IMG/VR virus record: IMGVR_UViG_3300009296_000199
DNA length: 64,000 nt
From: a virus
Strand: one strand, 5' to 3'
Within the stretch, counting starts at the first letter, position 1. Each line of letters opens with the position of its first letter. This document shows positions 7,331-51,989 of the stretch, piece after piece. The position numbers and the translations under genes are program-made. The notes under the pieces are model-generated. The model ran no database searches and had not been told where the DNA came from. It saw nothing but the letters and a program-made list of their open reading frames with translations.

Positions 7331-7848
7331 TGGACATGGATACGACCGAGAAGCTCCGTGTAGCTAAGGCTCGAATGCGGGAGGCCTGCATTCACGCGGC
7401 GCTGGCGAATACGCCCGCGTCCGTGCGGGTTATCCGCATCCGGAGGACCCTGTCGGGCCGGGCCTATAGCCCAGAGGAGATCGCGGTGCCGAGGCCGATC
7501 ACCCGCCGGGCCATCCACGTATTCCTCCACGAGTGCGCCCACGTCGCCCTGGGGCACGTCGGAGCCAACAAAGCCGCCCAGTTCGGGCCGACGTTGCCCC
7601 ACGTGGGGCCAGGGCCAGTCCGGGCGGCCCCAAGGCCCAAGTACGCCCGCAAGCCGCGACACGTAGAGGAGTACGAGGCCGAGCGATGGGCCTTTGACCG
7701 TATGCGGGAGTCCGGCATCCCCGTGCCACGGAAGTCACTGCGGCGGGCCAAGAGCTATGTGGCCTATAAGATCCGACAGGCCCGGCGGCGCGGGGCCAAG
7801 ACCGTAGACCGTGAGGCCCTCCGGTGGGCCGGGGAGGCGACGCCATGA
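7327..7848 (+). CDS. HExxH zinc metallopeptidase-like protein (ImmA/IrrE-like)
   Basis: FLHECAHVALGH plus downstream EYEAERWA; ATGA overlaps on both sides. Confidence 0.7.
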   Translation: MMDMDTTEKLRVAKARMREACIHAALANTPASVRVIRIRRTLSGRAYSPEEIAVPRPITRRAIHVFLHECAHVALGHVGANKAAQFGPTLPHVGPGPVRAAPRPKYARKPRHVEEYEAERWAFDRMRESGIPVPRKSLRRAKSYVAYKIRQARRRGAKTVDREALRWAGEATP

Positions 7849-8729
7849 CCCAGGATGCCATGCTGGACGGATTCTTGCAGCACCTGCGGGTGGAGCGGGG
7901 GCTCGCCCCCAACACCTGCCTGTCCTACGGGTATCAGCTGGGGGCCTACGTCGCCTTCCTGCGGGCCAGAGGCCAGGAGCCGGCCACGGCAACACGGGAT
8001 GACGTGATAGCCTACCTCGAACGGCGCAAAGGCGACGGCCTCAGGTCGGCGTCGCTGTTCATAGCTGCGATGGCCGTGAGGCAGTTCCATCGTCACCTGG
8101 CTCAAACTGGTTGCGCCTCGGCCGACCCGACCGCCGGTATGCGCCTTCCCCGGTTCAAACAGCGAATCCCGAAACCGTTGGACGCGGAGGGTATGGACCG
8201 GCTGCTTCGCCCACCCGTGGGGGCCACGTTCTCGGTCCTGCGCGACCACGCCATGCTCGAAGCCATGTATGCCACGGGGATGCGGGTCTCGGAGCTCGTG
8301 GGCCTCCGGTTGGGACAGGTGGACCTGGGAGCGGGCTTGGCGCGTCCTATGGGCAAAGGCTCCAAGGAACGCATCGTCCCTTTTGGGGCCCGCGCGGTGA
8401 TCGCCCTACGTCGCTACCTCGCCGCCCGCGCGGCCCGCTTCCCGGCCGCTCCGGACGTCGTATTCCTCAACACCTGGGGCCGGGGGCTCACGCGAAGCGG
8501 CTTCGGCTGGCGGCTTGCGACCGCGGCGCGCCGAGCAGGGATATCGGGACGGCTGACGCCGCACCAGATCCGACATAGCTGTGCGACCCATATGCTGGAG
8601 GGCGGGGCCGATATCCGCATAGTCCAGGAGATGCTGGGGCACGCGAGTATCACGACCACCCAAATTTACACCCATGTCTCGGCCAACCTGATGCGGGAGA
8701 CCTGTCGGAAGGCGCACCCGCGATTCTAA
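7845..8729 (+). CDS. xerD: XerD-like tyrosine recombinase
   Basis: SAM-like N-terminus (LRVERGLAPNT), ATGMRVSEL, GKGSKERIVP, PHQIRHSCATH, LGHASITTTQIYTH: full R-K-H-R-H-Y set. Confidence 0.9.
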   Translation: MTQDAMLDGFLQHLRVERGLAPNTCLSYGYQLGAYVAFLRARGQEPATATRDDVIAYLERRKGDGLRSASLFIAAMAVRQFHRHLAQTGCASADPTAGMRLPRFKQRIPKPLDAEGMDRLLRPPVGATFSVLRDHAMLEAMYATGMRVSELVGLRLGQVDLGAGLARPMGKGSKERIVPFGARAVIALRRYLAARAARFPAAPDVVFLNTWGRGLTRSGFGWRLATAARRAGISGRLTPHQIRHSCATHMLEGGADIRIVQEMLGHASITTTQIYTHVSANLMRETCRKAHPRF

Positions 8730-8843
8730 TAGGGTGTCGTTTCTGGCCTGCCGTTTCATAGAACGCTATAATGCATCATGGCGGCTTCACGAGGTTTCTG
8801 GGCCAAGTCCGGTAAGTATCATCCTCGGATTGGCAACAAGGTT

Positions 8844-9653
8844 ATGCAGATGATATTTCGATTCGCGATCTTCATTTCCCTGGGGTCTCTGCCCAGCGCT
8901 TCCTGGGCTTTCCCGTACACGCTGACGGATGTGCAGACGGCAAACGTTCATGAGCATCTGCCGTTCGGCCTTCCCTCCACGGGCGAACTTCTCTTTCGGC
9001 AGGGCTACGTCGTCAGCCACAACAACTGGCTGAAGATTCCCAATTGGACCGCATACCATCTGACTAAAGAACATGTGCAGGGGAATATTCCGCGATCTAA
9101 TGATTTTAGGCCGGACCTTTCACTTAAGACCTATCAACGAGCAGAACTTGTTGATTATCGTGGGAGCGGCTATGACCGTGGCCACATCGCACCTGCTGCT
9201 GACATGCGGTACAGCACCACCGCCGTATCGGAAAGTTTTTTTCTGTCCAATATGACCCCGCAGGTCGGAGAAGGATTCAACCAGGGCATCTGGAAGGATA
9301 TTGAAGAGATGGTCCGTGATTGGGCCAAGGAGCGCGGAGAGGTTTGGGTCGTAGCAGGCCCTGCTTTTGAAGATACCGACAGAGTAATGTCTTTTAAGTT
9401 GCTCGGCCCACACCATGTCGCTGTCCCGACACATTTCTTTAAGATTGTTTTATCCAAGGATGCTGAGGGAACACTGCATGTCATTGCCTTTCTCTTGCCC
9501 AACCAAAAGCTGCCGACAAAAGACTTGCCCAAATTCATAACAACAATCAGAGATATCGAGGAAAAGACAGGGCTCGATTTTCTCAATGAACTAAATGATG
9601 GATTGGAGGAAGAACTGGAAACCAAGAAAGCACCCAACCTGTATTTCTGGTAG
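8844..9653 (+). CDS. secreted DNA/RNA non-specific endonuclease (NucA/EndA family)
   Basis: Signal-peptide-like N-terminus, YDRGHIAPAAD, SNMTPQ, FNQGIW, VPTHFFKIV. TATAAT at 8767-8772 upstream. Confidence 0.92.
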   Translation: MQMIFRFAIFISLGSLPSASWAFPYTLTDVQTANVHEHLPFGLPSTGELLFRQGYVVSHNNWLKIPNWTAYHLTKEHVQGNIPRSNDFRPDLSLKTYQRAELVDYRGSGYDRGHIAPAADMRYSTTAVSESFFLSNMTPQVGEGFNQGIWKDIEEMVRDWAKERGEVWVVAGPAFEDTDRVMSFKLLGPHHVAVPTHFFKIVLSKDAEGTLHVIAFLLPNQKLPTKDLPKFITTIRDIEEKTGLDFLNELNDGLEEELETKKAPNLYFW

Positions 9654-9672
9654 GGTATATCAGGAGGAGACG

Positions 9673-10095
9673 ATGCGATTAATAAAAACGACGGGGATTT
9701 GTTTTTGGATGCTAGTTCTGGGCGTTTCAGTCTGCGTGGCGCACAAAGGAAAAACTGATTCCTATGGCTGCCATAACAACCGGAAGATCGGGGATTATCA
9801 TTGCCATTCGGGCCTTCTTGTCGGGCAGGTTTTTGCCAACAAGGCGGAGATGCTGGCAGCCTTGAAGGGGAATGATGCAGGGGCTAAGACCAAGCCACAG
9901 GCTAGCCGATCTTCCCCATCACCTGTTCCAAGTCAGCAGCAGGAACAGTCTGTCATGTTCAATACCAAGTCCCTGAAGTATCATTCGCCAACTTGCCAAT
10001 GGGCCATTAAATGTACGAAGAACTGCATCTCTATTCCATTGTCTGAGGCAATCAATAGGGGAGGGATTCCCTGCAAGGTCTGCGGCGGACATTAG
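9673..10095 (+). CDS. exported YHYH-type / Ada-like metal-binding protein
   Basis: GGAGG RBS, signal peptide, HKGKTDSYGCH..YHCH, C-terminal KYHSPTC..C..PCKVC. Confidence 0.75.
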   Translation: MRLIKTTGICFWMLVLGVSVCVAHKGKTDSYGCHNNRKIGDYHCHSGLLVGQVFANKAEMLAALKGNDAGAKTKPQASRSSPSPVPSQQQEQSVMFNTKSLKYHSPTCQWAIKCTKNCISIPLSEAINRGGIPCKVCGGH

Positions 10096-10099
10096 GCAC

Positions 10100-10987
10100 T
10101 TAAGACGTCTGAGCGAAATCGACCGCCACGGCGTAGCGGATGATTTCAACACGAGGCAGGTGCTTACTGGCTCGCCTGACGTCAGTTGGTAGCTTTGCTG
10201 GACCGCCGTGGACGAGTATGCCACGGACCTTCTTGCCGATTACGCGGCCAGCCTTCCGCAAATATCCTCGTAGTTGCTTGAGGTCCGCAATCGTGGGCGT
10301 GTTCTGCTTGCACTCAACGATTACGGGATTGTCGTTCCTATCGATCAGCAAGACGTCACTTCGAGTTCCATCGGGAAAGACGTTCTCGCGCACCTTGAGC
10401 GAGGGGTACGGCTGTAGCCCATCCTCAAGGCGATGAGGGTAAGTTCCGAGGTAGTCCGAGATCGACTTCTCCAGGCTAAAAGCATGTGTGGAGATACTGA
10501 CCCAATTCCGCCGGTCACTAACCGCGGCGGAGATCTTCTTGAACATGTGCTTAGGCAATGCGCAGATCGTGGGCCTAACGAGGCCTGGAGTGAGTCGCGC
10601 TGATGCGGGCAGCTCTACAACAAGGTCCTGGTCGACCGGCCCATTCACCAGATCCCACCGCACGATGATAGATCGGCCCATTTCGCCAACGGGCTCTTGC
10701 CTGCTGACCGGCACGAGAGGTTGCCACTCTTTATCTCCGACCTCCTTGCGAATAACATCCCCGATGCGACCGACGCGACTCTTGTTGAGCTGAACTACAA
10801 TTTTATCGCCAACCTCTATCGCCTTAAGGGCATTCCGAACACGGCTCCAACCGGCGCGCTTGGACTTGCCCTCCATTCTATATCCCCACTGAGGAGGGAA
10901 TCCAACCGCCGCAACCTGGTGCTGAAAATACCGCCGCCACAAGCTGGGCCAGTGGTTCTCCATACAGTAAATCTTCCAGAATCTCAT
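10100..10987 (-). CDS. PUA/EVE-like reader fused to NucS-like PD-(D/E)XK nuclease
   Basis: N-terminal IEVGDKIVV..GRIGDV..IVRW; C-terminal ENVF..RSDVLLID..VIVECKQ..LKQLRGY. Confidence 0.75.
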   Translation of the reverse strand: MRFWKIYCMENHWPSLWRRYFQHQVAAVGFPPQWGYRMEGKSKRAGWSRVRNALKAIEVGDKIVVQLNKSRVGRIGDVIRKEVGDKEWQPLVPVSRQEPVGEMGRSIIVRWDLVNGPVDQDLVVELPASARLTPGLVRPTICALPKHMFKKISAAVSDRRNWVSISTHAFSLEKSISDYLGTYPHRLEDGLQPYPSLKVRENVFPDGTRSDVLLIDRNDNPVIVECKQNTPTIADLKQLRGYLRKAGRVIGKKVRGILVHGGPAKLPTDVRRASKHLPRVEIIRYAVAVDFAQTS

Positions 10988-11301
10988 TTCTCTGGGGCCC
11001 TTAATCGGTTTGGATTTAACGCAAAAATGGATGCCAGCGCAATTCCGACGGTAGCAACGTTTATCACCGACCAGATTTCTCTGGTCAAATGGATTCGGAT
11101 GATTGGGTTATATAAGGCCGCGGTAATTCCCAGAATCCATACCCATCGCTCATTGCCGGCATCCTTTGCTCTGAAGGCTAGATAAGCAAACGTCAAACAG
11201 CATGCCCAGCGGAGGAGCACGTAATATCCGTATGGATGGCGTCCGAGCGCCAAGACTAGTAATAACGAAATGATGACCTGAGGAATCCAGAGCCTTTTCA
11301 T
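10984..11301 (-). CDS. small membrane protein (DUF6804-like)
   Basis: HPYGYYVLLRW..LYNPIIRIHLTREIWSVINV; 3-4 hydrophobic segments; ATGA overlaps. Confidence 0.75.
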   Translation of the reverse strand: MKRLWIPQVIISLLLVLALGRHPYGYYVLLRWACCLTFAYLAFRAKDAGNERWVWILGITAALYNPIIRIHLTREIWSVINVATVGIALASIFALNPNRLRAPEK

Positions 11302-12572
11302 GTTGCGGCAGTCTTCCCGCGTCTGCCGCGAAAGTACCAGGCCGCTACGATGCCTAGTAAAAGCAGAAGAGCTCCTGGCCAGAGGCTTTTCAATATCGCT
11401 GAGCGCAGTTGGCGAATATGCTGCTTGATGAACATATCCGTAAACCGATATTGGTCGAATTTCAGGAGAATTCGATCCTGCGGCGAAACAATATGATAAG
11501 TCAGGATTCCTTCTTTTTTGTCGGGGCCGCTTGCGCATAGTTCGCGAGCTAATTTCCAGGCACCGATAGCTTTCCAATACCGCCCCACATGCTCAAGACT
11601 GACTGCGTAGCTCGCCGGAATCCTGGCATCGCGCAAAACGCGGCCCTGCTGTAAAAGTTTTGAGCCTTCTTCCACCGCTTCATCATAACGGCCAAGTTCT
11701 CGAAGAACTCTTTGATGTAATAGTTGCGCTTCAACTCCATAGCCAGAGAGCCCTTTGGAATCCTTATCGACTAATAAAATCGCCTTTTCGTTCTCGGACA
11801 GCGCGCTATCATACTCCTCGTGATCTTCGCGCCAGTTCGTAATTGAGTTATGGAGAAAGATGTCGGATTTTATGTCCGTAGTCGAAGCCACGAACCAGAA
11901 CCAGTACTTCTGCTTCGCTGTATCAGGCGGCATCTTTTTGACGCGCTGCTCGAAGGTTAGCGGAAGGAGGCTCTCAATTTCCTTCAACTCGTTTTTATCT
12001 CCATCAGCGATTTTCTCATACTCTTCAGGTCCAGGCTTCGGCGGAATGCCTTTAATTGTTTCCATATTCCACTCGACCTTGTCAGATTGATTTTGGCCAG
12101 TTTGAAAATAAAACGATGCAGTGCTTCGTGGAGCGATGTTGATTTTCTGATCAAACTTACGCGAATCCTTCCCGACTGTTACAACAAATCGCACATTGCG
12201 GACATCCCACTTGCTCCCGTTGTAGAGAGTTCCAGAGAAACTTCCAGAGTTCAGCCCGCCGTTGCCGGTTACCTTCGAGGAGGCATGCGAAGATAGGTCT
12301 ACAGCAAAAGAATCTTCTCCATCCTGTTTTAGCTGAACGAGCCGATAGATGCAAAACGCGATAAGCGCGATGCTGAGAGGCAGGCCAAGAACTATTTTTA
12401 GAATTGAGGATCGTTGTCCGGCATAGCGATCCGATAGAAAAATAAATACCCATAAGAAAAGCGCGGCCAAGCTTCCTATGAACCACGCCCCATTGTCCGT
12501 CCCTTTCGCGGCACAAGCTGCCGAAAGGACGGCTGTGAATAACGAGTAAGCGATGAATTGATTTTTATTCAT
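11298..12572 (-). CDS. membrane protein with FxLYD-like and TPR-like regions
   Basis: Three N-terminal TM segments, FSGTLYNGSKWDVRNV (FxLYD-like), helical TPR-like part, C-terminal TM plus basic tail. Confidence 0.65.
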   Translation of the reverse strand: MNKNQFIAYSLFTAVLSAACAAKGTDNGAWFIGSLAALFLWVFIFLSDRYAGQRSSILKIVLGLPLSIALIAFCIYRLVQLKQDGEDSFAVDLSSHASSKVTGNGGLNSGSFSGTLYNGSKWDVRNVRFVVTVGKDSRKFDQKINIAPRSTASFYFQTGQNQSDKVEWNMETIKGIPPKPGPEEYEKIADGDKNELKEIESLLPLTFEQRVKKMPPDTAKQKYWFWFVASTTDIKSDIFLHNSITNWREDHEEYDSALSENEKAILLVDKDSKGLSGYGVEAQLLHQRVLRELGRYDEAVEEGSKLLQQGRVLRDARIPASYAVSLEHVGRYWKAIGAWKLARELCASGPDKKEGILTYHIVSPQDRILLKFDQYRFTDMFIKQHIRQLRSAILKSLWPGALLLLLGIVAAWYFRGRRGKTAAT

Positions 12573-40162: not shown

Positions 40163-41062
40163 TTACAGCGTCACACCGGCCAGCCGCGACGCCTTGATGT
40201 CGTTGGCCAGAACCAGAGCGAGGTCCTCGTAGATGTCAAACTCGCCGCCCTGCGAGGACTTCTGCGCCAGGCGCAGCATCCGCAGCGGGGTGAGCTCGCC
40301 GATCCAGACCGCGCTCGTGTCCAGGATGTGGATGTCGGTCGCGGCGTTGGACGTTCCCTGCGTCTGGGTGTCCGAGACCCAGATCGAGCGGAAGATCGGA
40401 ATCCCGTTGTAGACCTGCACCCGGAATCCGCCCTTGACCTCCATCGTGTCCACGAAGCGTTGCTGGGCCTGGAGCAAGCTGTTGAGCTTGCGGTTGGCCT
40501 TCTTGGACATGACCAGCATGCTCGGGTTGCCGCGGTTCAAGTCGATGGCCTGGTCGAGCAGGTCGAGGGTGAGCGGCGCGCCGTTGGCCCCAGCCACGAC
40601 CACCTGGCCGCCGGGGATGAGCTTGCGCAGCCCGTTGAACTGCTTCGGGTTGACGGCCGAGTCGCCGTTGATGAGTGCGTTCTCTTCCGAGTCGCGCACA
40701 TTTTGCAGGCCGTTATCGACTTCCTCCGCTTCGATATCGAGCAGGGTCTTGCCCACCGCCTGGAGCTTGCGCGTGACCTTGCGCCGGTCCAGGATGGTCT
40801 GGTAGGGGAAGGTCTTCTGCCCGTAGGCCCCCTGGTTCTCGACCGGCTCCTCGGTGTCGTTGACGAATCCCGCCCCCGCGCCACGCGAGGTCCTCTGGTT
40901 GAGGACCCACGCGGAGCCGGAGCCCGGCTTGCGCGGCAGGTTCACCCGCAGCGGGTTGTTGACCTCGATGAGTTCCTGGAGTACGCGGTCGACGAGGGGC
41001 TGCTGTAGTGCCCCTCCGCTCGCCATGTCCAAGGCCTTCTTGAGCTGTGTCAGATCGTTCAT
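40163..41062 (-). CDS. major capsid protein (HK97-type fold)
   Basis: GAGGAGG RBS; follows protease/scaffold; KQFNGLRK, DLLDQAID, VYNGIPI patterns; 299 aa. Confidence 0.85.
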   Translation of the reverse strand: MNDLTQLKKALDMASGGALQQPLVDRVLQELIEVNNPLRVNLPRKPGSGSAWVLNQRTSRGAGAGFVNDTEEPVENQGAYGQKTFPYQTILDRRKVTRKLQAVGKTLLDIEAEEVDNGLQNVRDSEENALINGDSAVNPKQFNGLRKLIPGGQVVVAGANGAPLTLDLLDQAIDLNRGNPSMLVMSKKANRKLNSLLQAQQRFVDTMEVKGGFRVQVYNGIPIFRSIWVSDTQTQGTSNAATDIHILDTSAVWIGELTPLRMLRLAQKSSQGGEFDIYEDLALVLANDIKASRLAGVTL

Positions 41063-41104: not shown

Positions 41105-42139
41105 TTACCCCTGCTGGAGAGCCAGGGCCACCCTGAGCTTGCGCTCAGGTGTCAGGCTCTCGAATTGCTTCCTCACGTCGTCTTGCTCGACGTCCGGCTG
41201 GACGAGTCCCTTGCGGAGCGTCGGGATCGCCTTGAGGGCGGCCTCGACCTGCCGGGCCACCTCGCCCGAAATCATCTTGCTGAGCTCATCGCGGCCCACC
41301 ATCTTGGGGGCGGGCTGAGGCGCGACCGCGGGCGGCGCGGGTGCAGGCTCAGCCGCCAGGATCGCCTTGACCTGCTCGGCCAGCGGTCCGGCCTGGCCGC
41401 CCAGCGCAGCGATCTTGTCTAAGATCACGCGGGCGGACTCCGGCTTGGGCGGCGCGGACTTTGAAACTTCCGCCGGCTGCGGAGCGACTTCCGGCTTGGC
41501 GGCCTCGGGCTTCGGTGCCTCGGCGGCCGGTGCTGCGGACTGGGGAGGGTCTCCGGCCTCGGGCCGTAGCTCCTCGATGACGACTTGTTCCTCGGGCATG
41601 TGGATTCCTCCTTGCGGCTTTTGATCGTTGGCTTCGAGAGCCTTCGAGACGTACCACCCGACGGCGCGGGCCTCCGGGTTGGCGGGGACCGAGACCACGG
41701 ACACTTCGACGAGCGTCATCTTCTTGATGACGTTGACCGTCCGGTTGAGCTCGGGCATGAACTTGCGCTCGCGTTCGAGCACCTGGCCGCGGATCGAAAA
41801 CTTGTTGAGTACGCCCTCCTTGATCTTCTGGATGATCTCTCCTTCGGTCTTGGAGATGAGGGCGTCGATGAGAAGGCCGTTGCGGTCGAAATTGACCTTG
41901 GTGACGCGGCCGATGGGTCGCTTGAAATCGTGGTTGAGAAGGACCGTGGAGTTCTTGATGAGGTCCGCTGCCGAGTCGGCCAGGGCTTCCTCGGTGATCA
42001 CGTCGCCCTGGAGGTCGAAGTCGGTGGTGGCGGCGTAGCCCACGATGTGGAACTCGCCGTTCTCCTCCACAGCCTTGAGCAGGCTGATGGGAAAATCGAA
42101 GGGCACCGCCCGCTCCGCGACCGCCGTCATGTTTTCCAT
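41105..42139 (-). CDS. prohead protease with C-terminal scaffold region
   Basis: IVGYAAT..DLQGDVI, LLNHD..PIG, LNKFSIRG, LVEVSVVSVPANPEA, followed by a Pro/Ala-rich linker and helical end. Confidence 0.9.
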   Translation of the reverse strand: MENMTAVAERAVPFDFPISLLKAVEENGEFHIVGYAATTDFDLQGDVITEEALADSAADLIKNSTVLLNHDFKRPIGRVTKVNFDRNGLLIDALISKTEGEIIQKIKEGVLNKFSIRGQVLERERKFMPELNRTVNVIKKMTLVEVSVVSVPANPEARAVGWYVSKALEANDQKPQGGIHMPEEQVVIEELRPEAGDPPQSAAPAAEAPKPEAAKPEVAPQPAEVSKSAPPKPESARVILDKIAALGGQAGPLAEQVKAILAAEPAPAPPAVAPQPAPKMVGRDELSKMISGEVARQVEAALKAIPTLRKGLVQPDVEQDDVRKQFESLTPERKLRVALALQQG

Positions 42140-42569: not shown

Positions 42570-42603
42570 TGCGGCAGGCATCCGGCTCATCGTAGCGTTG
42601 GCC
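42570..42603 (+). other. partial attC site (3' half)
   Basis: CGGCTCATCGTAGC-GTTGGCC parallels the 3' arm CGCTCATCCATCC-GTTAGGC of the next attC; no matching 5' arm. Confidence 0.5.
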
Positions 42604-42610
42604 AATCGAT

Positions 42611-43087
42611 ATGGAGCTAATGAAGAAATTCAAGGAAATCGTTGAGCACCTCCAGTGGTGGTGGGCACTGATAATCGCCATCCCCGGAGCGACTGCTTAC
42701 TGGGCCTACGTCGGGAAAATTCCGGGTCCAATCATATTGACAATAGTGCTTCTGGTCGCGGCCTCTGTGTTTCTGATTGTCGTCCTCTTCAATTACTGCA
42801 AAAACCCGCCTCCAATTGTTGGCCCATCCTTTACGCACGGGGGAGTGAAATGGACCCCAGTCCTGTACAACGCTGGAAAACCAACCGCAACGATTCAGGT
42901 TGGTGATCCATTGTGCTTGGAATGCGGGGCGCCACTTTTCGTCAAGAATGCTAGGACTGCCGAGTGCCCAACAGAAGCGTGCAAGCAGGAAGTGTATTCC
43001 TTCCAAGACTCAATCGCTGACACGAAAGAAAAGGCCAGAAGGGATGCCATTGGCAGAAGTGGCAGAAAAGAATTGAAATTTGGATGA
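42611..43087 (+). CDS. cassette gene 1: two-TM membrane protein with Zn ribbon
   Basis: Antisense to the phage operon, AT-richer; two hydrophobic segments, CLEC..CPTEAC; stop 2 nt before attC. Confidence 0.75.
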   Translation: MELMKKFKEIVEHLQWWWALIIAIPGATAYWAYVGKIPGPIILTIVLLVAASVFLIVVLFNYCKNPPPIVGPSFTHGGVKWTPVLYNAGKPTATIQVGDPLCLECGAPLFVKNARTAECPTEACKQEVYSFQDSIADTKEKARRDAIGRSGRKELKFG

Positions 43088-43089
43088 TG

Positions 43090-43194
43090 GCTTAACGGAT
43101 TGAGCGGACGGGCGCATGGAGAGAATTAGGAAAACCTGGGTGGACTCGCCGCGGCTGCTTGAAAGTGCGCCCGCCGCTCATCCATCCGTTAGGC
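43090..43194 (+). other. integron attC recombination site
   Basis: GCTTAAC (RYYYAAC) ... GTTAGGC (GTTRRRY); arms GAGCGG-A-CGGGCGCA / TGCGCCCG-CCGCTC with an unpaired base at the usual position. Confidence 0.85.
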
Positions 43195-43207
43195 ACACAG
43201 GATTTAA

Positions 43208-43795
43208 ATGAAGAGGAGCGCGATAGTAGATGCCGACGATTTGGCAACCGAATTGCACAAAGAAATCACTCGTTCCGAATTGGCATTGGCGTTTCGCAGG
43301 CTTGTTCTAACTCCACTACATACGAACACTTCGTTTCAGGCCGATTGTCGTGGGGCCTACAATCACATGGCAGTATCGACACTCAACTTGGCCTTCATAA
43401 CAATTGCGCGCTTGTTCGACCGGCCAAAAGGACGCCACTCTATCACCCTTCAATTCCTAATTGAGCGAATCAGAGATTTGTCGGCCAACAACGCGCGAAT
43501 AAATTCCGATGCCGAGAAGCATCTCCAAACGATAACGGATGTGCGTCTCAAGCTGTCACACCTGCGGAACAACGCAATTGCTCACAGGAATATTACCGAC
43601 GATGTGAGTCCTGTTTCATGGGATCTTCTCGAAGAAGTTCTAGACGACGCTCGGAAGATATTTGATTGGTGTGGAAGTGAGCGGGGACAAGCGTATTCAT
43701 ACTCCACCCACTTGCGAGGTTATAGAGGGGACTGCAGGCGATTGCTTGAGGCATTGGTTAATAAAGCGCCTCAGCCGGGGCCGAATTGTGCCTAA
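43208..43795 (+). CDS. cassette gene 2: HEPN-domain (AbiU2-like) protein
   Basis: All-helical; ITIARLFD..HSITL; LRNNAIAH (R-x5-H). Its stop TAA is part of the attC core GCCTAAC. Confidence 0.75.
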   Translation: MKRSAIVDADDLATELHKEITRSELALAFRRLVLTPLHTNTSFQADCRGAYNHMAVSTLNLAFITIARLFDRPKGRHSITLQFLIERIRDLSANNARINSDAEKHLQTITDVRLKLSHLRNNAIAHRNITDDVSPVSWDLLEEVLDDARKIFDWCGSERGQAYSYSTHLRGYRGDCRRLLEALVNKAPQPGPNCA

Positions 43796-43881
43796 CCATC
43801 GGATAGAGCCGCCGGGCGCCCTAGAGGAGCGCCAATATCCGCGGCGGCAGATCCTCAGCATTATGAATCTTATGGCGCGCG
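43790..43881 (+). other. truncated attC site
   Basis: GCCTAAC-CATC-GGATAGAGCCG-C-CGGGCGCC 5' arm is intact; the 3' arm stops after GGCGC at the stop codon of the phage methylase gene. Confidence 0.65.
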
Positions 43882-46290
43882 CTACTGAGCGTCGGCGTTG
43901 AGTATCATTCCACCGGTGGCGCATGCGATATTTTTCTCAACGTATAGATCACCCGGCTTGAGCGCGTAGTTCGCAACCAATAGCTCGTATTCCTTCCTCG
44001 CCCCGCCGAGTTGGTGCGAGCCGGTGTGCAGCGTTTTGATCCGGTAGGTCTTGAAGCCCTTGAAGAGCTTGGCCTTCTCGAGCTCGTAGCTCAGGAGGAA
44101 CTGACCCTTGATGCTCTTGAGGACCGGCATCATGTCCTCTTCTTTGAAGAACTTCGCCCCGAACTTTCCCTTCTCTTTTGGCCAGTGCAGCGGGTAGGGC
44201 GGGTCAAGGTAAAAGAACGCGTTGGGTCCGTCGTACTCCTTGACCACGTCCTTCCAGTCCCAGGAGTGAAGCTTGACCCCTTGGAGCCGCTCCTGGATTT
44301 TGGGCAGCTTATCGACCAATCGAATGTGGGCTCCGATACCGGTCGAGCCGTTAGGCCGCATACCTTCCCACACGTCCGTCCGGCCCCAATACTGGGCCTT
44401 GTTCAGGTAGGCGAAGCGATAGAACCGCTCGCGGAATGTCCGAGGCTTTAGCTCGAAGAGCTTCTTGGCCTGGGGTCGGGTGATGATCCAGTTTTGTTTC
44501 TTGAGCCAATCCAAATCCTCGGGCGTCATGCCCTTGATGAAACGGTAGGCCCAGATCAGGTCCGCGTTGACATCGTTGATCGCCTCAAGATCCGAGCGTT
44601 TCTTGTGGAAAAGCACCTGCGCCCCGCCGGCGAATCCCTCGATATAGCTCTTGTGCTCCGGCATGAGGCGGACGATTTTTTTGCACATGCGATACTTGCC
44701 GCCGGGGCTCTTGAAGGCACCCTGGACCTTCTCGACCTCGTCATCGTCGAGATGATTGAACAGCGGCCGGGCCTCGGCCTCCAGCCCCTCCGGTTCGGCC
44801 TCGAGTTCTTTCTCGATGTAGAGGTGGAGCGGCTTGAGCGGAAACTTTGAAACGAGGAGCTCTGTGATCCACTCCTGGTTACCGCCCGCTCCCTTCATCT
44901 GATTGCGCCGCTTGACCTTGTAGACGTTCCAGCTCTTCATGGCCCCTGCCATCTCCTTAGGGTAGGACACGATCCAGTTGGCCTTGAGGCCCTTGATCGC
45001 TTTCAGGAAATCCTCGTGCTTGAATCCGAAGTCGAAGAGGTTGAATTTGCCGGGATACGGCGGGTCCATGTAGAAGAACGTCTCGGGGCCGTCGTGCTCT
45101 TTGAGGACGTCGAGGTAGTCCTTATTGCTGACCGCGACGTTCTTGAGCCGCGCCTGCGCCCGCTCGATGTTGGCCGGGAAATCGATGCGGACCCCGGCGT
45201 TGGCGGGGTTGAACGAGCCGCCGCGCATCTTGCCGTAAGATGAGCGGGTCAGATAGAAGGATTTGTAGAAGCGGTCCCGATCACTCTCGGGCTTGAGCTC
45301 CTTGAGCCGCTCGTGGGTCTCCTTGCGGATCGTCCACTCGCGCTTGGCCAGGGCGGCCCGGTCTTCCGGGGAGTGGTCCCGGATGAAGCGGTGCATGAAG
45401 GCAATCTCCGGATCGCGGTCGTTGAGAGCCTCCTGTGGCGAGGGGTCCTTGGCGTAGAGAACGGCTGCCCCGCCCGCGAAGGGCTCAACGTAGAGTTTGT
45501 GGTAGGGGATGTATGAGACGATCTTGTGCGCCAGTGCCCGCTTGCCGCCGTAGGAGCCGAACGCCGCGCGCACACCCTTGAGCAATTCCTCTGCGGCGTC
45601 GCCCTCGTACAGGGCTCCGGCCGTCCGGGCGGCCTTGGCCGCCTCACCCACCGTCATAGGTTTGCCGCGGCCGGCGACGCTGGAAATCCTTGATGCCGAG
45701 ACGGAGATCGCCGTCGTCCCATCCGCCCGCTTGGAGAGGGCCATACCGTCGCACTCGACTTCGACGATGTCGCCCGCGTCCGACTTGGCCTCGGACGATT
45801 CGACCAGGCCTGCCTCCAGGAATAATCTTCCCTGGACAGAACGGACCAGTTCCGTCGCCTTCATGTTCTGGAAGTCCAGGCCGAAGTAGATATCGGCGGT
45901 GTCTGGAACTCGGCCCTCGTCGACCCGGGTGACCACGGCGCGGATAACGAAAGCTGGGGGGCGGTCGAAGGCGGCCAGCGGGTCCTCGGGCTCGCCGTCC
46001 GTGACCGAGCGGAGCAGCGGCTGGGTCTGCGCCTCCAACTCGTCATTGATCGCGTGATGGAAGGCGCGGCTGCTCAACTCGCGGCGCGCGGCCGCGTGAA
46101 GCTCCAGAAGCTCCGGGTAGTCCCAGTCCTTGCCGTTCTCGAACACTTTGTGCCCGGAGCGCTTCATCTCCCAGGCGCGGTGCAGGATGAAGTCCAGGGA
46201 CAGAAGCTCCTGATCGGAAAGTTTCGCGGGGTCCGACCGGAACAGGCTTCCAAAGTCGGCCAGGTTGATCTTTACGGTTTCCATGGTCAT
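43882..46290 (-). CDS. head-operon protein with two tandem D12-class adenine methyltransferase domains
   Basis: Start ATG 46290 (GAGGAG RBS, ATGA overlap with the portal stop). Domain 1 SYGGK/YVEPFAGG/YMDPPY; domain 2 SPGGK/YIEGFAGG/YLDPPY; about 235-aa non-methylase N-terminus. Confidence 0.9.
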   Translation of the reverse strand: MTMETVKINLADFGSLFRSDPAKLSDQELLSLDFILHRAWEMKRSGHKVFENGKDWDYPELLELHAAARRELSSRAFHHAINDELEAQTQPLLRSVTDGEPEDPLAAFDRPPAFVIRAVVTRVDEGRVPDTADIYFGLDFQNMKATELVRSVQGRLFLEAGLVESSEAKSDAGDIVEVECDGMALSKRADGTTAISVSASRISSVAGRGKPMTVGEAAKAARTAGALYEGDAAEELLKGVRAAFGSYGGKRALAHKIVSYIPYHKLYVEPFAGGAAVLYAKDPSPQEALNDRDPEIAFMHRFIRDHSPEDRAALAKREWTIRKETHERLKELKPESDRDRFYKSFYLTRSSYGKMRGGSFNPANAGVRIDFPANIERAQARLKNVAVSNKDYLDVLKEHDGPETFFYMDPPYPGKFNLFDFGFKHEDFLKAIKGLKANWIVSYPKEMAGAMKSWNVYKVKRRNQMKGAGGNQEWITELLVSKFPLKPLHLYIEKELEAEPEGLEAEARPLFNHLDDDEVEKVQGAFKSPGGKYRMCKKIVRLMPEHKSYIEGFAGGAQVLFHKKRSDLEAINDVNADLIWAYRFIKGMTPEDLDWLKKQNWIITRPQAKKLFELKPRTFRERFYRFAYLNKAQYWGRTDVWEGMRPNGSTGIGAHIRLVDKLPKIQERLQGVKLHSWDWKDVVKEYDGPNAFFYLDPPYPLHWPKEKGKFGAKFFKEEDMMPVLKSIKGQFLLSYELEKAKLFKGFKTYRIKTLHTGSHQLGGARKEYELLVANYALKPGDLYVEKNIACATGGMILNADAQ

Positions 46291-48278
46291 CTCTCCTCGA
46301 GGACGGTAACCCACGTACATCTGCAATTTGGATGGATTGGAATCGTCCCCGACACATCGTCGATGGACATGATACGGCCCAGCTTCTCCCCGGGCATGAT
46401 CTCGGCTGCATCCACGCAGAGAGGACAAGCGTCCGATGCCAGCAAAAATTGGACACGATCTACATCGGCTTGCTTCAACGCATCCAGGTTGCCCTCGTTG
46501 TAGGCGCGGTTGGCTTCGGTGCGGGCGATCATCTCGGACAAGGTCGATCGGTCGAGCCGACGGGTTCCGCCGACGCGCAGCACGTTGCCCGCATCGTCCA
46601 AGACCGGCTTCACTGTGAATGTTCCTGGCGAGTCCAACTGCTCCTCGATTCGGCGCATGAGCTGGGGGATTGTCTCATTGGCGGCCACGCCATCGATCAG
46701 GGCCTGACGGAGCCCCGCCTTGAGGGACTCCGAGACATTGGTAGCCACGGACAGAGCGTTGCTTCGAATCTTCTCCTGGAGTGCCAAGCTCGGCTCATCT
46801 ACGTCCTTGAGCCCGTTGCGACGGGCCGAGAGCGCCAGGCCCTTGCGTGCGGACTCCAGCGTGAATCCCTGCACGACCCTGGCGATCTTGTCCTTGTCGA
46901 TGAGTTCGAGCAGGACCTCCAGGTCATCGAGCTGCTTTGTGGCCTCGCCGCCCAGGGCGGGGAGCCCGGCGGCCATCGCGGCTTTGATCTCGCGGAAGAG
47001 CCGTTCCATGGCCCGCGCGAAACGTTCCTCGATCTCCACGGCCTCGCGGCTTGAAGCCACGATGGCCTTAGAGAGGGCCATGCCCTTTTGGAGTTCCGGC
47101 ATCCTGGGAGCCACCATCCGGCGCACCTCCTCGGCTGTGAACACGCCGTTCTGGAGGTAGACGTTGAATATCTCCGCCTGGTCCTTCTCATCGATAGCCC
47201 GCTTGTTAAACTGGAAGGACCAATCTGAGATCCCGAAACCTTTCCGGATCACATGCTTGTTGATCTTCTCGGCCACCCGCATCTGGAAGGGGAGGATGGT
47301 CTCATCGTAAAAGGTCTGTGTCTGGTGCTCCCCGGTGCCCGACCCGATGTTGCCTGTGTCGATGATCGAGACTTTGCTGGGCGGCACACCATAGACGGCC
47401 AGAATCTCATTGCGGGTGAACGATCTAAGTTCCAGGAACTCCATGTCCTTCTGGTTGACGCCGATCTGCTTAAAATCAATGTCGCCCTCCATGACCAGGT
47501 CCGAGTGAGCTGTATCTGGATTCTTGGCGCGGGCGGCCATGTACTCTCGGTTGCGCTCCACCTGCTCAGGGGTGGCGTCCTTCATGATGAACGCGCCGCG
47601 GATTTTGGCGCCATTTAAAAAGAACGATCTGTTATATACCTGTGCGAACTTGTCCACGGTGATCGGCAGGATGAGCGAAGCCAGCGGGGAAAGGCCGTAG
47701 AGGGTAGCCCCCTTGGTTCCCAGCTTGAAGTGGATCACTTCCCTGGGTTCGAATTCGACCCTTCCCGTCTGGTTCCGCGTCGTAGCAAAGCGCGGGACCT
47801 GGACGTAACCCGTAATCCCGCCGTGCTCGTCCGCCTTGACCCGTATCGTAGTTGCGTCGAGGTTCCACAACTCGCGCGGCTTGCCGTCCGGGCCGGGGAC
47901 CAGTTCTAGGAAGGCGTTACCGAAGACGTAGACATCCCGCGCCAGGTCGTCGAGTATCTCCAGCAGGGTGTCGTTGGGATTGCAGTTGCCGAAGAACTCC
48001 TGGAGGAGCTCGGCGTTCTTGGGGTCCGCGTCAGGCTTGGCGGGGACCAAGCTGTAACCCCTGGCCGTGACCGCCTTGCAGATGACGCTCACCACGGCCC
48101 GGACCCAGGAGGTCTGCTCGTACATCTGATTGAAAATCTCAAAATCGATATCCGGCAGGATGCCCTCGTCAAACGAGATGCCCGCCGCGTGGGAGACCAC
48201 CTGCTTGGAGGATTTCTCAATCTCCTCGCGGATCACGCTTCCAAACAAGGTTTTGACGATCAACTCTTTTATTCCCAT
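46287..48278 (-). CDS. portal protein fused to MuF (phage Mu F-like) domain
   Basis: Portal motifs (YVFGNAF, EVIHFK, YGLSPLAS, EILAVYGVPP), then IARTEANRAYN..CPLC..PIHPNCRC. Confidence 0.9.
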   Translation of the reverse strand: MGIKELIVKTLFGSVIREEIEKSSKQVVSHAAGISFDEGILPDIDFEIFNQMYEQTSWVRAVVSVICKAVTARGYSLVPAKPDADPKNAELLQEFFGNCNPNDTLLEILDDLARDVYVFGNAFLELVPGPDGKPRELWNLDATTIRVKADEHGGITGYVQVPRFATTRNQTGRVEFEPREVIHFKLGTKGATLYGLSPLASLILPITVDKFAQVYNRSFFLNGAKIRGAFIMKDATPEQVERNREYMAARAKNPDTAHSDLVMEGDIDFKQIGVNQKDMEFLELRSFTRNEILAVYGVPPSKVSIIDTGNIGSGTGEHQTQTFYDETILPFQMRVAEKINKHVIRKGFGISDWSFQFNKRAIDEKDQAEIFNVYLQNGVFTAEEVRRMVAPRMPELQKGMALSKAIVASSREAVEIEERFARAMERLFREIKAAMAAGLPALGGEATKQLDDLEVLLELIDKDKIARVVQGFTLESARKGLALSARRNGLKDVDEPSLALQEKIRSNALSVATNVSESLKAGLRQALIDGVAANETIPQLMRRIEEQLDSPGTFTVKPVLDDAGNVLRVGGTRRLDRSTLSEMIARTEANRAYNEGNLDALKQADVDRVQFLLASDACPLCVDAAEIMPGEKLGRIMSIDDVSGTIPIHPNCRCTWVTVLEER

Positions 48279-48686: not shown

Positions 48687-50105
48687 TCATTCGATGTCAT
48701 CCGTGAATGTGATCCTGGGCTCGCTCTTCTGCACCCTCACCGCCCGCAAGGCGAGCACGAGGGCGTCGAGCATGTCGTCGTTGCCGTTGGGGAACTCCGC
48801 CATCTCTTCTTCCAGATGCGAGACCCATGTGGCGAAGTTGAGCCTCGGTAGGCGTATCGCTCCGCTTTGCACCAAGGGAGAGAGCCCGCTGATCCGGGCT
48901 TCCTTGGGATCGTTCACGGAAAGCATCTGAAGCGGCATGCGCCTGGTCTCGGGGTCCACCCGCAGGAGCTGGCCGAACACGCCCTGGTAGCCCGTGGCCT
49001 CCGCGACCATCAGGACCGGATTGAAGACCCGCCAGATGCGCTTGGCGTGGGCGATCTGGTCTACGACCCCGATGTGGCCGCGAAAACCGTCCAGCACGAA
49101 TGCGCAGCCGGTGCGGTCGAGGCCGATCACGATGTAAGCCCAATTAGAAGCGCCTCTTTTCTCGCTGATCGCCAAGTCGATTCCACAATACACCCTCAGG
49201 CTCTCGGGCGGCTTGTCAAAGCGTCCCGACTCGATCCACTCGATCCTGAAGGCAGAGTCCTCCTCCTGGCCGGCGATATCGTTGAGGAACTGCAATCGGT
49301 AGGCCGCCGAACCCATGTTGGCCCTGTACTGGTCCAGGGTCTCCGGCGAGAACTTTTGGGGGAACAATATCTTGCGATTGCCCCGCTCGTCCGTCCACTC
49401 GGCGCGCTGCTCGATGACCTTCCAATTCTTGAACCCCGGCTCGGACATGATCACGCCGGCCAGGTCGTCGCGGTTCCAGCGCGTCATGCAGGTCACGATC
49501 TGCCCGCCCGGCTCCAGGATGGGAAGCACCACCTTTTGGAACCAGGACATGATCTTCTTGCGCTGGAAGGAGGATTTGCTGTTCCTGTCTCCCTGCGGAT
49601 CATCCAGCAGGATCAAGTCGGCGTGGGAGCTGAGGATCGTGCCCAGTATGCCCGCTACGCTAATCGACGGCTCCTTGAGCACCTTGTCCCTGGGGATGAG
49701 AATCTTTTCGGCGGTCCACATCTCGCTGAGGGTGTCCCAGTTGCCGTGGAGTTCGCGGAACTTGTCCGAGGCGATGTGGGCCTTGATGGAGCTGAGGATG
49801 TCCTTGGAGTTTCCCAGGACTTCGTTCAAGATCAGGATGCGCAGGTTCCTGTTCTGGGTGAGCCGCCAGAGCGCGTAGGCCGTGCTGACGGCCGAGGTCT
49901 TCAGATGCCCGCGAGGCGATAGCAGCAGCACGAAGCGGTTTCTCAGAATCTGGTCATACCAGCCCAGATGGAAGTCGCTTATGTCCTTGTAGCCCAGGCC
50001 CTCCCTTGCGAAGGCAAACAGCTCCAAGAGCTTCGCCCGGAGCGTGGCGTCGTCCCAGTGGGGGAAGAGGGCGGAGGGCGGCGTAGCTGAGTTGGGGGCG
50101 TTCAT
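48687..50105 (-). CDS. terL: terminase large subunit
   Basis: SPRGHLKTS (Walker A), ILLDD (Walker B), MTRW, GIDLA, NDDMLDA. Confidence 0.92.
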   Translation of the reverse strand: MNAPNSATPPSALFPHWDDATLRAKLLELFAFAREGLGYKDISDFHLGWYDQILRNRFVLLLSPRGHLKTSAVSTAYALWRLTQNRNLRILILNEVLGNSKDILSSIKAHIASDKFRELHGNWDTLSEMWTAEKILIPRDKVLKEPSISVAGILGTILSSHADLILLDDPQGDRNSKSSFQRKKIMSWFQKVVLPILEPGGQIVTCMTRWNRDDLAGVIMSEPGFKNWKVIEQRAEWTDERGNRKILFPQKFSPETLDQYRANMGSAAYRLQFLNDIAGQEEDSAFRIEWIESGRFDKPPESLRVYCGIDLAISEKRGASNWAYIVIGLDRTGCAFVLDGFRGHIGVVDQIAHAKRIWRVFNPVLMVAEATGYQGVFGQLLRVDPETRRMPLQMLSVNDPKEARISGLSPLVQSGAIRLPRLNFATWVSHLEEEMAEFPNGNDDMLDALVLALRAVRVQKSEPRITFTDDIE

Positions 50106-51155: not shown

Positions 51156-51989
51156 TCAATGCGCATAGAACCCGGCGGCCTGCATGGCCCGATTCCATGA
51201 GCCGAAGTGCGCCCTGATCGTCTGATAGCACGGGAGTCCACTCGACAGGTGGCCGGTAAAATCCGCGGCCATGGGCATGCGACCGTGCTCCCGGGCGAAT
51301 TTCCTGAGGCTTGCGAGCAGTTGATCGTCCGAGTAGACGGGTGCAGGCAGCCTCGTAGAAAAACCGTTCGCCGTCTTGAAGCAGTTGAAGTTACTCCAGT
51401 GGCGGCGAATGGCTTTATGCAGTCCGGGTTCATGGCGGTGGATGTCATGATTCGAGGGTTCCCTGCCAAGATTGTCCGCGAGAATCAGATACCGCCTCAG
51501 CACCTGCTCCTTGCAGATGGCGTGCTTGTTGAGCCATGCCGCGCTGTTTTTCGCGTACCACGCGGTCTTCACTCGCGATGCTTTTTTGTAAGAGAATTTG
51601 ATAATCCTCTTCAACCACAACCGCTGCTTTTCTCGAAAGACGGGATCGGAAAAGCGCTTCCGGCTCCAATCAGACATTCTCTTTGAGAACGAAATGCCGC
51701 AGAGAGGAAACCCTAAGGGCAATCCGAATCTGAATTTGTAGGCCCTGGATGATATCCCGTGCGCCTGATTGAGGTGGGTGCTCAACAGCTTGAACCACTT
51801 CCCGCAGATATGGCACTGGATCTTGTCCGAGACGGTATCCCGCAGGATTACGCCGAGGTATCCGAATCCGCTTTTCAACTTCTCCAGGGGCGGCTGGACC
51901 TTGAAGAGCGTTTCGATTTTAGCCCCGCATTCCGACTCGATCTGATCTTCAGGCGCGACTTTCGGCACACCTTCCTGCTTCAGGCTCAT
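51156..51989 (-). CDS. MucR/Ros-like zinc finger plus homing-endonuclease-associated-type repeats
   Basis: IQCHICGKWFKLLSTHLNQAHGISSRAYKFRFGL; two repeats ending RRHWSNFN and RAHFGSWNRA. Confidence 0.7.
   Translation of the reverse strand: MSLKQEGVPKVAPEDQIESECGAKIETLFKVQPPLEKLKSGFGYLGVILRDTVSDKIQCHICGKWFKLLSTHLNQAHGISSRAYKFRFGLPLGFPLCGISFSKRMSDWSRKRFSDPVFREKQRLWLKRIIKFSYKKASRVKTAWYAKNSAAWLNKHAICKEQVLRRYLILADNLGREPSNHDIHRHEPGLHKAIRRHWSNFNCFKTANGFSTRLPAPVYSDDQLLASLRKFAREHGRMPMAADFTGHLSSGLPCYQTIRAHFGSWNRAMQAAGFYAH

Follow-up and report, generated by a model that had tools for sequence, protein, structure and literature searches.

Tandem D12 adenine methylases encoded behind the portal-MuF gene of an Elusimicrobia prophage, a candidate capsid-carried anti-restriction protein

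The DNA analyzed here is a stretch of 64,000 nucleotides from the IMG/VR virus record IMGVR_UViG_3300009296_000199, hereafter called the window. On its minus strand, to which all features belong unless stated otherwise, the open reading frame (ORF) 43882..46290 runs free of stop codons and translates to a protein of 802 amino acids, P0001. From its N terminus, P0001 comprises a helical domain resembling T4 endonuclease V (endoV), the OB remnant of a DNA ligase, a first D12 adenine methyltransferase domain, an acidic linker, a second D12 domain, and a short tail. The gene is placed between a portal-MuF fusion gene on one side and the genes encoding an S78 prohead protease and the capsid protein on the other. 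According to our analysis, the gene is almost certainly genuine and encodes an intact double adenine methylase within the head module of a prophage. The host of the prophage is an uncultured Elusimicrobia bacterium.

Pfam D12 (PF02086) matches P0001 in two stretches (E = 1e-34, 120.7 bits, with a cut-off of 22), and PHROG DNA methyltransferase families match it at E = 1e-82. Domain 1 spans residues 239-494 (44809..45576) and ends in LYIEK; its motif I, EPFAGG, is found at residues 269-274 (45469-45486) and its motif IV, DPPY, at residues 409-412 (45055-45066). Domain 2 spans residues 522-786 (43933..44727) and ends in LYVEK, with motif I in the form EGFAGG at residues 551-556 (44623-44640) and DPPY at residues 696-699 (44194-44205). 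Motif X (..GGK) reads FGSYGGK in domain 1 and FKSPGGK in domain 2, and each domain shows the order motif X, motif I, motif IV, with all these motifs invariant in 17 homologues. Aligned over 274 columns, the two domains show 38% identity and have a common C-terminal tail, LKP..LY[IV]EK, while they differ, with gaps, between motif I and DPPY. A preliminary description of this DNA, made from its letters alone, had recognized two full, diverged D12 domains, each with motif I and DPPY, and the two Pfam stretches, the degree of identity and the invariance of the motifs bear this out. Since their motifs are complete, both methylases are predicted to be catalytically intact. The nearest solved enzymes, E. 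coli Dam and DpnM, match only at E of about 1e-4, so that the target sites of the two methylases are not inferable from them.

The two domains are separated by an acidic linker (residues 495-521, 44728..44808), which ends in VEK. In this linker a PEG.E ... LP.LE pattern is kept in homologues down to 55% identity; such conservation is unexpected for a spacer, and the linker could be a docking peptide. Domain 2 is followed by a C-terminal tail consisting of residues 787-802 and the stop codon (43882..43932), which is absent from homologues and abuts an inserted block of plus-strand DNA.

The N-terminal third of the protein was examined with a structural model of residues 1-245 (predicted local distance difference test score, pLDDT, of 77), which contains a helical domain (residues 1-96), a disordered stretch (96-108), and a beta-barrel (109-226). 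The barrel (45613..45966) is the OB domain of an ATP-dependent DNA ligase. When it was compared by VIA-align with 48,161 solved chains, the top nine rows were OB domains of a capping enzyme and of ATP-dependent DNA ligases (Z 9.3-6.8, root mean square deviation 3.1-4.0, 80-108 residues aligned); a Foldseek search of the 1-245 model against the PDB returned weak OB matches only, with none at E <= 0.001. Residues 113-245 of P0001 are 44% identical to residues 493-630 of the relative P0046, which come directly after the DNA_ligase_A_M domain (295-490) of that protein, and the same applies to P0079. DNA_ligase_A_M, the adenylation domain with the catalytic lysine, has no Pfam match in P0001. Because residues 113-245 align to the stretch that directly follows the ligase domain in these relatives, P0001 is derived from an ancestor with the order N-domain, ligase, methylase, methylase, from which about 390 residues, including the adenylation domain, have been deleted.

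The helical N-domain (46003..46290) is built of three long helices and shows a distant kinship to Pyr_excise and T4 endonuclease V. A profile of residues 1-98 found 79 representative proteins among 1.84 billion, and an alignment of 42 family members gave a model with a pLDDT of 88. Pfam Pyr_excise (PF03013) is matched at E <= 1 by 28 of these 42 members (best E value 5e-6), P0091 scoring above the cut-off, and no other Pfam family is matched by more than two of them; the N-domain of P0001 itself has no Pyr_excise match. The structure of T4 endoV aligns to the N-domain model with Z 4.7 over 72 residues at 18% identity, at rank 34 among helical proteins, and the hhalign comparison of the N-domain family with T4 denV was not significant (probability 1.4%). 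In that non-significant alignment the catalytic Glu23 of the T4 enzyme falls opposite I35 of the N-domain, and the Glu is not conserved. Furthermore, the N-domain begins about 12 residues after the N terminus of the protein and is internal in several relatives, so that the T4-type N-terminal nucleophile is not available to it. Profile searches with the N-domain against PDB sequences gave nothing meaningful, and the protein Atlas gave no usable match. We deem the N-domain to be probably a non-catalytic, DNA-binding offshoot of the T4 endoV fold. The N-terminal region had been described as non-enzymatic and proposed to target the protein to the prohead; it is not an anonymous region but consists of an endoV-like helical domain and a ligase OB domain.

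The start codon of P0001 lies in an ATGA overlap, in which its ATG is shared with the TGA stop of the upstream portal-MuF gene. A second in-frame ATG follows 6 nucleotides downstream (the ATG pair lies at 46284-46290), 8 nucleotides after a GAGGAG box; this spacing is better than that of the first ATG, and the second ATG corresponds to the 'MET.KINL' N terminus of the homologues. In two related loci (L001 and L003) it is this 'MET.KINL' start that overlaps the portal stop, so that the coupling of stop and start is conserved regardless of which ATG serves P0001. The portal-MuF gene (46287..48278) matches Pfam Phage_portal over residues 58-388 (E = 2e-53), while Phage_Mu_F is matched at residues 523-656 with 23.6 bits, under its gathering score of 29.6; PHROG minor-head/MuF families match with E values down to 1e-16. 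The methylase ORF is separate from the portal-MuF ORF, with a TGA and then the ATGA overlap, and does not form a C-terminal fusion to MuF in one ORF. A portal-MuF-methylase fusion by frameshifting was considered and dropped, as the overlap is of the usual stop-start kind with no sign of a slippery site.

Upstream of portal-MuF lies the gene encoding the terminase large subunit (48687..50105). In the other direction, 3' of the methylase gene, the same-strand order is a small ORF, the S78 (HK97-type) prohead protease with a scaffold-like C-terminal half (41105..42139), which is a candidate processing enzyme, and the major capsid protein (MCP) of the HK97 fold family, without the delta domain (40163..41062). 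That the gene is ATGA-coupled to portal-MuF inside the head module, as first described, is confirmed by the overlap read in the sequence, by the portal and MuF profiles, and by the protease and MCP genes downstream. In the S78 protease, a long Pro/Ala-rich linker leads to a helical C-terminal part that is probably the scaffold.

Elusimicrobia metagenome genomes are the source of almost all close homologues of P0001, whose identity over the methylase pair is 55-83%. In ten loci from metagenome-assembled genomes (MAGs), the available flanks all preserve the order TerL, portal-MuF, methylase gene, small ORF, protease, MCP, and among the Elusimicrobia MAG loci portal-MuF is directly upstream in seven and the protease-MCP pair downstream in six. 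A scan of the viral contigs in IMG/VR with a narrow N-domain alignment found 13 contigs, in 11 of which the gene abuts portal-MuF; one of the remaining contigs has a gap of 1.6 kb and the other no portal match within the available 0.9 kb. Including loci where portal and MuF are separate genes, about 25 related loci, besides the window itself, have the gene in the slot behind portal or MuF.

What occupies the slot varies in domain content. The tandem methylase pair is kept as a unit in most homologues, and the number of methylase domains is one (L007, L097, L099), two, or three (P0051). The ligase is retained in L090, P0046, and P0079, and the ligase-less form seen in P0001 is found also in P0003, P0004, and P0007, which come from independent contigs and are 66-79% identical. 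The domains gained or lost among the relatives are ligase, LigD-phosphoesterase-like, MBL, zincin, PolA, and an extra methyltransferase domain; thus, P0020 and P0025 carry a C-terminal LigD-phosphoesterase-like domain, and P0011 has an inserted zincin peptidase (HExxH, Pfam ATLF). In P0020, P0025, P0058, and P0079, the domain after the methylase pair contains ..QHHWRG..HADLRFE, resembling LigD 3'-phosphoesterase; Pfam LigD_N gives a weak match, in P0111 only. Distant proteins that share only the N-domain contain DNA ligase, MBL hydrolase, MetW-type methylase, or LigD_N-like domains. Fusions of the N-domain to other enzymes next to portal genes, which the preliminary description had proposed to look for, do exist: those scanned among the 79 proteins carry ligase, MBL, LigD-like, or methyltransferase domains, and P0079, P0105, and P0109, with DNA ligase or MBL domains, are all three encoded in a head module. 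P0105 and P0109 come directly after the portal gene, and P0079 (in L084) after a truncated gene rather than a recognized portal; P0079 and P0105 stand ahead of an S78 protease and a capsid gene, whereas the short contig of P0109 ends earlier.

A second lineage, which lacks the N-domain and whose methylase domains show about 35% identity, has three D12 domains followed by a C-terminal XkdF-type prohead protease. The gene order in L081 is terminase, portal, MuF, the D12-XkdF fusion, a gene of no assigned function, and capsid, with no other protease seen. In L012, a prophage in a Desulfobacterales MAG, a single protein of 1376 amino acids (7458-11588) is encoded directly after the portal and MuF genes and combines a D12 methylase, a MetW-type S-adenosylmethionine-dependent methylase, an ATP-dependent DNA ligase, and a C-terminal XkdF prohead protease. 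The fused XkdF is the only protease seen in the head modules of both loci. The prohead protease acts inside the prohead, and since the enzymes of L081 and L012 are covalently joined to it, they must enter the prohead as well. Indirect as it is, no other argument speaks as strongly for the whole family being head cargo; for the protease-free P0001, homology and synteny would point to prohead loading. Literature searches on XkdF or prohead protease together with methyltransferase, on ligase in polyvalent or minor head proteins, and on methyltransferases in virion proteomes found nothing relevant.

Some further features of the locus concern its flanks. A low-GC block on the plus strand (42570..43881; 1.3 kb, GC 0.54 versus about 0.61) separates the methylase gene from the next head gene and holds an AbiU2-type HEPN gene (43208-43795) and an ORF of no assigned function (42611-43087). 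In L001, L002, L091, and L093 the methylase gene is followed directly by the small head ORF, without this block, which we consequently consider an insertion, and because the junction holds different inserts, about 2 kb long, in L006, L013, L094, and L096, it is a hot spot for accessory genes. Upstream of the packaging genes, 51156-51989 (minus strand) encodes a protein of 277 amino acids with a ROS/MucR-type zinc-finger regulator domain and a homing-endonuclease-associated HNH_repeat domain.

The reading that we favor, to which we give an even chance, is that P0001 travels in the capsid and counters restriction by acting on the DNA of the phage itself. The protein would be made late, translationally coupled to portal-MuF, and a few copies would be built into the prohead beside portal-MuF or the scaffold, where they would stay with the packaged DNA. 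Two kinds of site in the phage genome would then receive methyl groups from P0001, during packaging or on entry into the next cell, so that host restriction enzymes would meet sites already modified. The S78 prohead protease may, in addition, split the modules at conserved Lys-ended borders.

As regards this last step, four hydrophobic-x-Lys tripeptides had been reported at the domain borders, and all of them lie exactly where they had been placed: LLK at residues 236-238 (45577-45585), IEK at 492-494 (44809-44817), VEK at 519-521 (44728-44736), and VEK at 784-786 (43933-43941). K238, K494, and K521 are invariant in homologues. Nearly every methylase domain of the family is preceded by [hydrophobic]-[E/D]-K, 9-12 residues before the GGK of motif X at a variable offset, and the linkers ahead of this tripeptide are otherwise variable and acidic; it also precedes some non-methylase domains in relatives. 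The HK97 capsid protein is cleaved at K103/S104 (PMC10275583). The HK97 cut, in TFNK/SLGS, lies in a hydrophobic-x-Lys site, the sites in P0001 resemble FNK/S, and the phage's own protease is of the HK97 (S78) family.

Several observations weigh against the capsid-carried reading, and many of them concern cleavage. Hydrophobic-x-K occurs in P0001 at chance level (24, compared with 18.8 +/- 3.5 in shuffles), [LIVMF]EK is found 4 times against 1.5 +/- 1.2 in shuffles, which is not significant, and the form with E/D in the middle is not enriched in most relatives; among the features of the motif, only the location at domain borders is conserved. Standalone relatives start with M-K/R/N near the position of the border Lys, and since many of them have a basic residue close to where the domain begins, the border Lys is not by itself a linker feature; it may belong to the fold instead. 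The fourth site (784-786) is absent from homologues that end earlier (P0004, P0006, P0008). Of the proposal that a protease releases the methylases at these sites, the likeness to the HK97 site and the three invariant lysines stand, but the motif is not enriched and its fourth occurrence is not conserved, and we consider cleavage at the predicted border Lys sites doubtful. Apart from cleavage, P0001 itself has no protease domain, unlike its relatives in L081 and L012. A prohead-targeting role of the N-domain is hypothetical, and the prediction of a complex between the N-domain (1-100) and the MuF part of the portal protein (400-663) scored 0.00, which gives no verdict and is not evidence either way. 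A folded 28-kDa methylase would have to exit through the tail channel, and a late cytoplasmic methylase would fit the late operon equally well.

An enzyme of the latter kind would be an ordinary late orphan phage methylase, which methylates the concatemers in the cytoplasm before packaging and never enters the virion, its slot behind the portal gene securing only late, moderate expression. Orphan D12/Dam methylases are common in phages (231 phage records match), single-domain relatives are widespread in bacterial genomes, the junction after the P0001 gene is an insertion site for accessory genes, and any targeting signal in P0001 is hypothetical. The known orphan Dam-type methylases, such as those of T4 (Dam), VP882, and Campylobacter Mu-like phages, belong to the same Pfam family, are about 30% identical to either P0001 domain, and serve to protect the phage's own DNA; however, they are single-domain proteins of about 250 amino acids, lie outside head-assembly genes, and have no accessory domains. 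Such a role leaves unexplained why the same slot is kept across distant phage lineages, why the methylase is covalently joined to the prohead protease in L081 and L012, and why it is accompanied by non-methylase DNA-repair domains and a conserved N-domain. We regard it as a genuine possibility, though not a probable explanation.

Compatible with either location of the protein is a mode of action of the M.FokI type, in which P0001 would remain one uncleaved chain with a single specificity, each domain methylating one strand of an asymmetric site, and no proteolytic release would be needed. In M.FokI, two adenine methylase domains, each with its own strand specificity, occur naturally in tandem (PMC5974420). 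Other tandem type IIS adenine methyltransferases also have two diverged adenine methylase domains per chain, and the P0001 domains are likewise diverged paralogues, gapped between motif I and DPPY and kept as a tandem in most homologues. M.FokI, however, is part of a restriction-modification pair, while P0001 is encoded in a head operon whose nearby genes are portal-MuF, the AbiU2-type gene, and head genes, with no restriction endonuclease partner among them. Since one, two, or three methylase domains are found in the same slot of different relatives and the endonuclease partner is missing, independent methylase modules would fit better than an obligate pair of the FokI type, which we find rather unlikely. 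It is very improbable, finally, that P0001 is a decaying, functionless remnant of a larger ligase-methylase polyprotein. The adenylation domain of the ligase is deleted and the unique C-terminal tail abuts an insertion, as would be expected of a remnant, but no stop interrupts the 802 codons, both methylases have kept every catalytic motif in intact and invariant form, and the ligase-less form recurs in the independent contigs of P0003, P0004, and P0007.

To return to P0001 as a candidate capsid-carried protein, it is a variant of the theme represented by the polyvalent proteins and the Dar system of phage P1. The polyvalent proteins of phages and conjugative elements (Iyer, Burroughs, Anand, de Souza, Aravind 2017; PMC5512222) are multi-domain effectors whose genes stand beside those of virion proteins or encode fusions to MuF; a zincin peptidase is frequently present, and injection is predicted. 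P0001 resembles them in combining several DNA-acting effector domains per chain (four in P0001), with a content that varies between orthologues, and in being encoded among virion genes next to MuF, here directly after portal-MuF (PMC5512222). The N6-adenine methylase is described there as a hub domain and the zincin, present in the relative P0011, as a typical processing domain (PMC5512222). The differences are that the polyvalent methylase is of the DarB type and paired with an SNF2 helicase (PMC5512222) and that in the window the portal protein includes the MuF domain, with the cargo encoded in an ORF of its own that overlaps the fusion gene. In a word search of PMC5512222, D12, XkdF, endonuclease V, and glycosylase were not encountered, and 'ligase' appeared three times, two of them referring to ATP-grasp RNA ligases.

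In phage P1, darB adjoins the portal and protease genes, the N-terminal 30 residues direct DarB into the head, and the head-carried protein shields incoming DNA from restriction (PMC9024508). The P0001 gene shares with darB the position of a methyltransferase gene next to portal and prohead protease genes (PMC9024508). DarB, however, is a 250-kDa methylase-helicase that needs Hdf, DarA, DdrA, and Ulx (PMC9024508), whereas P0001 has two D12 domains; neither Pfam nor PHROGs detected in it a helicase domain that would suggest the SNF2 coupling of the DarB type, and its methylases are of the D12 class. No Dar-type gene was recognized among the head-module genes scanned, some neighbors being left unscanned. 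Also related are the protease-fused polyproteins of L081 and L012, which have D12 domains about 35% identical to those of P0001, occupy the same slot between portal/MuF and the capsid gene, and draw on the same accessory set of DNA ligase and LigD-phosphoesterase-like domains. P0001 differs from them in lacking the protease domain, the phage in the window having a separate S78 protease-scaffold gene, in possessing the endoV-like N-domain, and in following portal-MuF with an overlapping stop and start.

To this theme the window adds a protease-free, portal-MuF-coupled form, a shared endoV-like domain that marks the family, and a case of module loss in which the ligase is reduced to its OB domain. 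As a wider and decidedly tentative idea, which we think unlikely to hold in full, the gene may belong to a widespread and so far undescribed class of head-internal phage 'repair-and-protect kits', that is, strings of D12 methylases, ligase, LigD-type phosphoesterase, MBL, and endoV-like domains, which would be loaded into the prohead by protease fusion or by portal-MuF coupling, cut at Lys-ended borders, and ejected with the genome, sealing nicks and methylating DNA before host nucleases act. Taken alone, P0001 is moderately interesting; proof of capsid delivery would make the family as a whole highly interesting. In that case, phages of several phyla would deliver ready-made methylases with their genome and, in relatives of P0001, also ligases and end-healing enzymes. 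This would be a pre-emptive answer to restriction and to DNA-damaging defences, and it would extend the P1 Dar paradigm to small, common enzymes. The portal-MuF/prohead-protease route would then represent a natural way of loading capsids, useful for packaging foreign enzymes in phage particles.

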